A stretch of DNA of 64,000 nt from an uncultured Acidimicrobiales bacterium (GTDB taxonomy: Bacteria; Actinomycetota; Acidimicrobiia; Acidimicrobiales; SZUA-35), in the NCBI GenBank assembly GCA_963775125.1, contig CAVZHQ010000007.1, positions 488,059-552,058 on the forward strand, in the 5' to 3' direction. The position numbers were made by a program, and so were the translations under genes. A model generated the notes under the pieces. The model was not told the origin of the DNA. It worked only from the letters and a program-made list of their open reading frames with translations, and did no database searches. Every line of letters starts with the position of its first letter. Positions within the stretch are counted from its first letter, which is position 1. Positions 42,493-43,308 of this stretch are shown piece after piece.

Positions 42493-43308
42493 TCAGATCT
42501 TGATGCCGATCACGACCCCTGGACCACGTGGGCCGCCAGGGTCCGGGCCTCCGAGATCGACATTGACACCGGCATTGGCGAACACGCCGGCGGAGTCGGT
42601 GTAGGGCGTCGCGGTGGTGGCGCGCTTCAGGTCCGGTCCCAGTCGGCGCAGCTGACGGGGGAACGCCGGCCCGGGGAGCTCGTAGGTCAAGGCGACCTGT
42701 CCCATGGCTTCATTGACGCCCCGAGGCGTCTTGGCCGAGTCGGCCAGGACGAGGTGCGCCTTGGCCACTGCTTGGTCGTAGGGCGAACTGTCGGAGTAGC
42801 CGGCGCCATGACCGCGCTCGTAGCTGCTGGGGTAGCCCGAGTTGAAGGGGGTCGCCATCCACACCGAGATGCCGCCTGTGGCGCCTGCGCCCGGCTTTTC
42901 GACCGAAGCGACGTCGCCGGCGCCCGGCCAGGCGATGGCGATTTCGAAGAGGGGGAACCCGCAGCGGCACCAGTGCTGTACCGGGCCCGCCCCGGCGACC
43001 AACAGCGAAGCCACTGCTCGAGCGGTTCGCTTCACGACCTCGTGGATCTCCCAGCCCGAAAGTTCGCTGTTTCCGGCCCACATGGACTCGCCGTCCTTCC
43101 CGAACCAGTTTCGGTCGGTCTGCGGCAGGAAGGCCTGGGCCTCGGGTGAAATCGGTAGGGCCCTGTCGAGGGCGTCGAAGAACCGATCCCCGCCATCGAG
43201 CATGCCGATGAAGTTCTTGAGTTGCTCGGGTGTTGCGTTGTTGTACGCCTTGTCGATCTCGGCGAGCTCGCGATATCCGCCCTGCCCCCAATTGAATCCC
43301 GTACCCAT
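42493..43308 (-). CDS. Hypothetical soluble protein, 271 aa, no recognisable family
   Basis: Strong GC3 codon bias, with an AGGAGGG Shine-Dalgarno sequence 7 nt upstream of ATG 43308. It lies 33 nt downstream of the STAND-cyclase stop on the same strand. No TM or signal peptide. The tail is Gly/Pro-rich: GGPDPGGPRGPGVVIGIKI. Confidence 0.7.
   Translation of the reverse strand: MGTGFNWGQGGYRELAEIDKAYNNATPEQLKNFIGMLDGGDRFFDALDRALPISPEAQAFLPQTDRNWFGKDGESMWAGNSELSGWEIHEVVKRTARAVASLLVAGAGPVQHWCRCGFPLFEIAIAWPGAGDVASVEKPGAGATGGISVWMATPFNSGYPSSYERGHGAGYSDSSPYDQAVAKAHLVLADSAKTPRGVNEAMGQVALTYELPGPAFPRQLRRLGPDLKRATTATPYTDSAGVFANAGVNVDLGGPDPGGPRGPGVVIGIKI

Follow-up and report, generated by a model that had tools for sequence, protein, structure and literature searches.

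A new protein family encoded beside STAND-cyclases in Acidimicrobiia and its possible coupling to haem-peroxidase chemistry

The 64,000-nucleotide stretch of DNA from an uncultured Acidimicrobiales bacterium that was analysed here (the window) carries at 42493–43308, on the minus strand, an ATG-initiated open reading frame (ORF) for a 271-residue protein, the target, which belongs to a new protein family. Immediately upstream on the same strand lies the gene of a 1059-residue, MalT-like STAND protein (43342–46521, minus), which combines an AAA_16 domain, a helical, TPR-like region and a C-terminal class III cyclase homology domain and is referred to below as the STAND-cyclase. At each of the 15 independent loci, and at identities as low as about 25%, the immediate neighbour of the family gene encodes a STAND-cyclase of this clade (about 1050–1100 residues). 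As judged from these sequences and gene arrangements, the target protein is very probably a dedicated partner of the STAND-cyclase. Fusion or adjacency to haem peroxidases is the main functional lead. It is possible, if doubtful, that the family is a new fold which couples a STAND-gated cyclase to haem-peroxidase chemistry, either as a Cys/Trp sensor of peroxide or haem that would activate the STAND ATPase or as a second-messenger receptor that would activate peroxidases.

Linkage to the STAND-cyclase and joint loss of the module

The 15 loci comprise the window, L001, L003, L004, L007–L012, L021–L023, L025 and the locus of protein P0024, with adjacency established by local hidden Markov model (HMM) searches and, for P0024, separately. 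The STAND-cyclase lies upstream on the same strand in 13 of them and is convergent in the other two (L009 and L025). Specifically, the same-strand arrangement is seen in the window, where 33 nt separate the STAND-cyclase stop codon (43342) from the ATG of the target gene, and in L001, L003, L004 (equivalent to L005 and L006), L007, L012 and L021–L023. The upstream STAND-cyclase gene is fragmented by frameshifts in L010 and L011, the contig of L008 holds only the last 66 residues of the cyclase, and the P0024 locus, available as a gene neighbourhood without DNA sequence, has an upstream gene for a 1079-residue AAA_16 protein. A genome scan with cyclase-domain patterns returned one true locus (L012) together with eight loci carrying other cyclases (L013–L020), which are shorter and more distant (profile scores <100 vs >170), and a family member was found in none of these eight. 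Three more family loci (L021–L023) came from a metagenome scan.

The cyclase assignment of the STAND protein rests on its C-terminal part. Pfam places AAA_16 at residues 12–174 (E 2.5e-23), gives a weak TPR signal and does not detect the cyclase domain; the last 190 or so residues (about 870–1059; window 43345–43920) match Ma1120 in the PDB at E 6e-8 with the single sequence, and LipJ as well. With a profile built from five members of the clade, the match to Ma1120 reaches E 1.4e-23 and that to LipJ 6.9e-18, several adenylate and guanylate cyclases are matched as well, and the same order of AAA_16, helical region and cyclase domain is repeated in L003, L004, L012, L023 and L025. In the cyclase domain the two metal-binding Asp residues, the Asn and the Arg are recognisable (alignment A4). 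The positions of the substrate-specifying Lys and Asp of canonical adenylate cyclases, as read from the sequences of the clade, appear to be Ser (in an invariant GHEFSExGD motif) and Arg (in GRPYG), and the product of the cyclase may therefore not be cyclic AMP.

The target gene and the STAND-cyclase gene have diverged together. Between the window and L001, a related metagenomic contig, the target proteins are 64% identical and the STAND-cyclases 66%, the Crp-like protein encoded next to them is 89% identical, and flanking genes are at 85–91%. Additionally, a 5.04-kb block of the window (42517–47558) is absent from the sister genome GCA_038256755.1 (L024), as revealed by blastn and tblastn. 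Within the block lie the target gene minus its last eight codons (seven sense codons and the stop), the STAND-cyclase gene in full length, and the Crp-like gene with the spacer on its far side. By blastn, window 41500–42516 corresponds to L024 10124–11156 and window 47559–48700 to L024 11171–12313, and the scar consists of the 24 nt of the target 3' end (TCAGACCTCGATGCCGATCACGAC), the place of the block being taken by L024 11157–11170. In tblastn against L024 the flanking genes are 82–98% identical (96–98% for threonyl-tRNA synthetase (ThrRS), HIT and the avidin-family gene), and none of the three genes of the block is matched. One clean deletion has thus taken all three genes, a natural knockout of the module, and their joint loss in a single event shows that they behave as a self-contained and dispensable unit.

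Taken together, the linkage in 15 of 15 loci, the shared fast divergence and the joint loss bear out the first-pass annotation where it had named the target as a candidate partner of the cyclase. The phylogenetic profiling that it had proposed came out positive, with 15 of 15 family loci carrying the STAND-cyclase and none of the eight distant-cyclase loci carrying the family, and no search placed the protein in a housekeeping family that occurs independently of cyclases.

The Crp/FNR-type regulator gene (46637–47317, plus strand, divergent from the pair) encodes a protein with the Pfam domains cNMP_binding and HTH_Crp_2, and its translation retains the GE...RSA phosphate-binding cassette; it is likely the reader of the cyclase product at the window locus. 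A Crp-like gene accompanies the pair in only three of the 15 loci, namely the window, L001 and L004. The alignment of the divergent promoter between the window and L001 contains conserved blocks and no clear TGTGA-N6-TCACA palindrome of the kind expected for a Crp-like operator. The spacer that separates the Crp-like gene from the avidin-family gene holds a perfect 16-nt tandem repeat of 2.7 copies (GTCTTCTGGCGGGAGA; 47485–47527), about 30 nt within the right edge of the deleted block. The avidin-family gene itself (47594–48043, plus; PF01382, E 3.6e-16; no obvious signal peptide) is part of the flanking backbone and not of the module, because its position is conserved in both L001 and L024. 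On the other side, a 263-residue ORF (41694–42485, plus) without a Pfam match overlaps the HIT gene (41377–41946); its true start is probably near 41950, because the gene calls in L002 and L024 give 178–183 residues. The neighbours of the module are housekeeping genes (ThrRS, HIT and a CDP-alcohol phosphatidyltransferase), and this setting, together with the Crp-type factor, resembles a regulatory circuit more than it does an abortive-infection system.

Several further features of the contigs were recorded. A single ENA sample (ERZ25039524) is the source of L001, L010 and L011, many of whose genes are split by frameshifts, and L001 carries at 1–4599, beyond the avidin gene and orf188, two large RHS/YD-repeat genes that are absent from the window. 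The 4.3-kb contig of L022 shows two inverted copies of the cyclase end and family gene facing each other (470–3831), which is probably an assembly artefact. In the L004/L005/L006 lineage the family gene is followed downstream by genes for BTAD-domain (SARP-type) regulators (L004 12287–12823; L005 2524–3786).

The target protein, its family and its predicted fold

The target is a real, constrained and soluble gene product. Its G+C contents at the three codon positions (0.66/0.53/0.82) follow the pattern of the neighbouring genes (67% G+C in the window), a Shine-Dalgarno sequence AGGAGGG (43316–43322, minus; the plus strand reads ccctcct) stands 7 nt before the ATG, and comparison with the 64%-identical L001 ortholog gives a non-synonymous rate (dN) of 0.28, a synonymous rate (dS) of 1.2 and a dN/dS of 0.23 (Nei-Gojobori, 268 codons). 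The start codon is right, because the N terminus MGTGFNWGQGG aligns with the N termini of the family. A consensus scan found no terminator-like site between the STAND-cyclase and target genes, the scan itself being uninformative, with 0 promoters and a terminator count at chance level. The highest 19-residue Kyte-Doolittle mean is only 1.12, so the protein has no transmembrane helix; its N terminus is neither hydrophobic nor basic and not signal-like, and its isoelectric point is 5.4. Residues 113–119 read WCRCGFP, and the C terminus, GGPDPGGPRGPGVVIGIKI, has Gly or Pro at 12 of the last 30 residues and ends in GPGVVIGIKI. The first-pass annotation had described a clearly coding gene with this ribosome-binding site and a soluble product with these two segments, without transmembrane helix or signal peptide, and all of this stands. 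At the 3' end, the target stop codon (42493, minus) and that of the convergent gene (42485, plus) are 7 nt apart, and both lie inside a small inverted repeat, TGAGC-GAG-GCTCA (42483–42495).

Scans of the target against Pfam-A (2025), NCBIfam 20.0 and PADLOC-DB 2.0 gave no family at E<=1, and signatures of toxins, nucleases, pores, TIR, proteases or cyclic-nucleotide (cNMP) binding were absent from these scans. Together with the PDB scans, this agrees with the earlier statement that the protein matches no known family. The word 'orphan', used in the same place, is wrong in the strict sense, as an exhaustive phmmer search of 1.84 billion representatives returned 32 proteins at E<=1e-3, namely the query, P0033 and 30 further family clusters. 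P0033, a fasciclin, looks spurious and was set aside. Among the 8000 candidates admitted by a word index, a search with the target sequence retrieved only the target itself and the L001 ortholog, and alignment-based runs gave two to three proteins each, and a scan of a genome collection with family patterns found no locus. The clusters hold one to three sequences each, whose sole names are "hypothetical protein" from Acidimicrobiia metagenome-assembled genomes (MAGs), and one family locus is from an Acidimicrobiales MAG. All 30 aligned members lack a meaningful family in Pfam, NCBIfam and PADLOC, the full-length family consensus has no match and its N-domain gives only sub-threshold noise (E>=0.016); literature searches returned no description of the family or of a STAND-cyclase/DyP module. 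The target is a cytoplasmic single-domain protein of a kind about 270–340 residues long, and its family is so far named only in Acidimicrobiia/Acidimicrobiales MAGs.

Family members share their first ~160 residues at 24–42% identity (30 clusters, alignment A2). W68, W77 and C116 are invariant, Cys116 being the only invariant polar residue, and M1, W7, G10, G70, H89 and P154 are near-invariant; the target carries W7, G10, W68, G70, W77, H89, C116 and P154 and matches the family HMM end to end (E 1.8e-66, positions 1–272 of 288). The signature of these N-terminal residues comprises M-x-x-x-x-x-W-x-x-G at the start, NWFG...(P)MW, an (Q)IHxV helix, the C116 hairpin and VW.xTPFNxGY. In many members a C-terminal strand motif PG-IEISW follows, represented by VVIGIKI in the target. 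Near Cys116 there is a His or a second Cys, with C116 and H118 in most members and H112, C114 and C116 in the target.

AlphaFold2 run on the 30-sequence alignment gave a model with a mean predicted local distance difference test (pLDDT) of 80 and a predicted template modelling score (pTM) of 0.82; from the single sequence the prediction was useless (pLDDT 32). In the model, residues ~14–104 are helical and are followed by a three-stranded meander (110–116, 122–126 and 147–153), whose first strand is closed by C116 in the HWCRCGFP hairpin, and by two further helices. Short strands at both termini (residue 8, and residues 267–270 of VVIGIKI) are probably added to the predicted sheet. The Cys116 hairpin is placed near the invariant Trp68 and Trp77. 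The search with Foldseek on an AlphaFold model, as earlier suggested, placed the protein in no known family: against 350,542 PDB chains the best E was 1.6 with a template modelling score of at most 0.22 (residues 160–171 and 246–266 of the model being of low confidence), and against BFVD there was no match (best E 3.1). Known cyclic-nucleotide receptor domains (CAP_ED/cNMP_binding, GAF, SAVED and CARF) had no Pfam, PADLOC or Foldseek match in the target, a result that speaks to membership in these families alone and stays compatible with nucleotide binding by a new fold.

Several other candidates were considered and rejected. TAL effectors gave the top PDB sequence matches, with a low whole-sequence E-value because it is summed over the repeats of the matched protein; target residues 23–64 match each single repeat at 1–6 bits (i-Evalue >60), this segment is not repeated in the target, and its TALE-like character is not conserved in the family. 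A periplasmic solute-binding protein of family 3 (3vv5) matched over 44 residues only (E 0.0039), with profile positions 30–73, ending at the WFG motif, falling on its C-terminal helix, and there was no fold match. A tautomerase-like catalytic N-terminal Pro was dismissed since Pro2 is unconserved in the family, a phosphodiesterase role since conserved His and Asp residues are too few, and a C-terminal encapsulin cargo tag since the conserved C-terminal strand belongs to the fold in the model.

Haem peroxidases, the favoured reading and its rivals

A haem peroxidase is fused or adjacent to the family gene in five of the 15 loci (DyP-type in four, animal-type in one), several of the remaining contigs being too short to judge its presence. 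Specifically, P0026 (794 residues) consists of the whole family module followed by a DyP-type peroxidase and P0024 (755 residues) of the module followed by an animal-type haem peroxidase, and both fusions keep the module complete, including a GIxISW-like strand. In L012 the operon runs from the STAND-cyclase through the family gene to DyP, in L004 the DyP and STAND-cyclase genes are transcribed divergently, and a sigma factor gene and the Crp-like gene lie alongside, and in L010 a DyP gene lies two genes downstream. Searches by phmmer with DyP and animal-peroxidase seeds found none among the ORFs of the window or of L001. The peroxidase link is therefore a frequent and not a defining feature of the family. 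Other redox genes were seen near the pair: an AhpD/CMD-family gene upstream of the STAND-cyclase in L025 (14821–15174, minus), a copper amine oxidase in L011 (3075–5018, minus) and an FMO-like monooxygenase adjoining the STAND gene in the P0024 locus. These neighbouring peroxide and oxygen genes may hint at a redox theme.

We tentatively favour a reading in which the target protein would bind the STAND protein and act as its input or regulatory subunit, and which as a whole we hold to be somewhat less than an even chance. Cys116, on its β-hairpin beside Trp68 and Trp77, would serve as a redox- or haem-reactive switch, and either peroxide or a partner haem peroxidase would drive it, the latter of the kind that is fused or adjacent in a third of the loci and lacking in the window. 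Depending on its state, the target protein would then permit or prevent oligomerisation of the STAND ATPase, through which the cyclase domains would be joined as active dimers, and the cyclic nucleotide would be read, at the window locus, by the divergently encoded Crp-type transcription factor. Within this scheme, the direction of signal flow (input, not output) and the redox chemistry are weakly supported hypotheses.

The input role is favoured because the output side at the window locus is already filled by a canonical cNMP-binding factor in the same deletable block, because the protein is one compact domain with few invariant polar residues, as would be expected of a protein that binds or switches more than of an enzyme, because the single polar residue that is invariant is a hairpin Cys with a His or a second Cys close to it, and because the divergence of the protein follows the STAND sensor region. 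In particular, over seven pairs, identity in the family N-domain correlates with identity in the STAND helical region at r = 0.85 (Mantel p = 0.003) and with identity in the cyclase domain at only r = 0.61, a correlation that agrees with interaction and is inseparable from the shared ancestry of linked genes. The peroxidase association suggests as the cue peroxide, haem or peroxidase-generated oxidation. Beside that shared ancestry, several points weigh against this reading. The window and its ortholog locus L001 are without a peroxidase, so that the redox idea rests on distant members at 25–30% identity, and no haem peroxidase is known to relay oxidation to partner proteins as thiol peroxidases do. 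STAND proteins normally sense ligands by their own repeat domain, and a separate sensor is not needed. The Crp-like gene is present in three of 15 loci, so the family is the only local candidate receiver in most of them, which favours a receptor role. Finally, the family size and the invariant residues derive from a single-sequence search and 30 sequences, and a deeper profile could change the invariants.

The alternative that survives best, which we rate only slightly below the input reading and regard as unlikely by itself, is that the family domain would act as a receptor of a new kind, bind the nucleotide product of the cyclase and control an output, with the fused or adjacent peroxidase as the regulated effector. 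Stand-alone proteins such as the target would then act by binding another target, following Pycsar/CBASS logic and coming close to the 'effector' of the first-pass annotation. Besides the STAND-cyclase, the family alone is present in 15 of 15 loci, compared with three for the Crp-like reader; the layout of P0024 and P0026, with an N-terminal regulatory domain and a C-terminal enzyme, is usual for ligand-regulated enzymes; the unusual cyclase motifs (GHEFSExGD and GRPYG) may mean an unusual product that may need its own receptor; and the invariant tryptophans could stack on a nucleobase. However, the domain has no similarity to CAP_ED, GAF, SAVED, CARF or another known nucleotide-binding domain, and the deletable block of the window already holds a cNMP-binding transcription factor, so that a second receiver is not needed here. 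Additionally, the stand-alone protein seems to be one compact domain in which the modelled C-terminal strand probably completes the sheet and no room is left for an effector module, and its identity follows the cyclase domain less well than the STAND helical region.

A role as haem-peroxidase accessory (haem-loading, substrate-presenting or docking), with the family gene standing beside the STAND-cyclase only because the cyclase/Crp system would regulate peroxidase genes, is improbable. In its favour, the module occurs in fusions with members of both the DyP and the animal haem-peroxidase superfamily, which are unrelated, three more loci have an adjacent DyP gene, and Cys116 with its nearby His (H118 in most members; H112 with C114 and C116 in the target) could ligate haem or a metal. 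Yet the STAND-cyclase is found in 15 of 15 loci and a peroxidase in five, no member with a peroxidase and without a STAND-cyclase was seen, neither peroxidase type is encoded among the window and L001 ORFs, and the sister genome lost the target together with the cyclase and Crp genes and not with any peroxidase.

Slightly less probable still is an Avs/NLR-type anti-phage or conflict system in which infection would be sensed by the STAND protein and the target would be a toxic effector, a guarded decoy or an inhibitor. A STAND ATPase with an adjacent gene of unknown function is common in defence systems, the pair evolves much faster than its neighbours, its presence differs between close relatives, and the family is rare and patchy, with one to three members per cluster. 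Against this, PADLOC gives no match for the target, that for the STAND protein (E 0.023) is negligible, the overall dN/dS of 0.23 carries no whole-gene sign of positive selection, the housekeeping surroundings (ThrRS, HIT, CDP-alcohol phosphatidyltransferase) are not a defence island, the associated Crp-type factor and peroxidases are not known as defence effectors, and the scans of the target lack transmembrane, nuclease, TIR and protease features. A non-functional ORF, whether a chance frame in GC-rich DNA or a decaying remnant, would fit the missing annotation, the lack of a known domain and the dispensability in the sister genome, but this reading is already refuted by the gene-like G+C at positions 1 and 2 and the value of 0.82 at the third, the strong and correctly spaced Shine-Dalgarno sequence, the dN/dS, homologs at 25–40% identity with conserved motifs and N terminus, and the confident co-evolution-based fold.

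Among bacteria and eukaryotes, STAND ATPases whose output is enzymatic hold a central place in signalling and immunity, and an obligate, co-evolving partner offers a handle on this unstudied clade and on the cue that switches on the many actinobacterial STAND-cyclases. That one module has been fused independently to haem peroxidases of two unrelated superfamilies hints at a possible, so far undescribed, link from peroxide or haem chemistry to cyclic-nucleotide signalling. Defining the family, which has neither a Pfam or NCBIfam model nor a detected structural relative, would turn "hypothetical proteins" of Acidimicrobiia into a testable three-part circuit. Either coupling, by sensor or by receptor, would if true constitute a new type of bacterial redox/second-messenger signalling module.

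Comparison with known signalling systems

With the MalT/LAL STAND regulators the STAND-cyclase shares its domain order of AAA_16-type NOD, helical repeats and C-terminal output, the output being a class III cyclase domain in the window protein and not a LuxR-type helix-turn-helix (HTH) domain. The activity state of Escherichia coli MalT is set by separately encoded small soluble modulators (MalK, MalY and Aes). Unlike these modulators, which are moonlighting enzymes encoded elsewhere, the target family is dedicated and always adjacent, and the target is without detected sequence or fold similarity to MalK, MalY, Aes or anything in the PDB. Mycobacterium tuberculosis cyclases of the Rv0386/Rv1358/Rv2488c type likewise combine AAA_16, TPR-like repeats and a cyclase, and Ma1120/Rv1120c and LipJ (Rv1900c) are the closest cyclase domains to that of the STAND-cyclase by the profile values given above. 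In the window protein, however, the order is reversed, with the cyclase C-terminal where theirs is N-terminal, and a LuxR HTH is lacking; the mycobacterial STAND-cyclases are not known to have a dedicated partner gene.

Pycsar and CBASS offer a further parallel, in that a cyclase gene is followed by a small protein of variable C-terminal content, enzyme fusions occur and the distribution is patchy. They differ from the present system in that the target has no PADLOC match and no cNMP-binding, SAVED, transmembrane or TIR part, the window cyclase is embedded in a STAND ATPase, and the module includes a Crp-type factor. As a small soluble protein encoded by a cyclase gene, the target also recalls stand-alone cyclase-adjacent sensors (H-NOX) and redox relays (yeast Orp1/Gpx3 to Yap1), and its single invariant Cys and the recurrent haem-peroxidase link suggest possible haem or peroxide sensing. 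It is, however, without homology to H-NOX, globins, PAS or thiol peroxidases, and in the known peroxidase relays the enzyme is a thiol peroxidase, neither a DyP nor an animal haem peroxidase.

No relationship is known between the target family and the partners of Sinorhizobium meliloti CyaC. The CyaC-Clr-CycR system (PMC10463352) is reported to comprise a redox-responsive adenylate cyclase in a complex with a Crp-like and a further regulator, and it provides a precedent for one unit made up of a cyclase, a Crp-type factor and an additional protein. CyaC is a membrane-bound cyclase, unlike the STAND protein of the window. Taken together, the system resembles known STAND-gated signalling or cyclase-receptor pairs, and the protein family itself is new.

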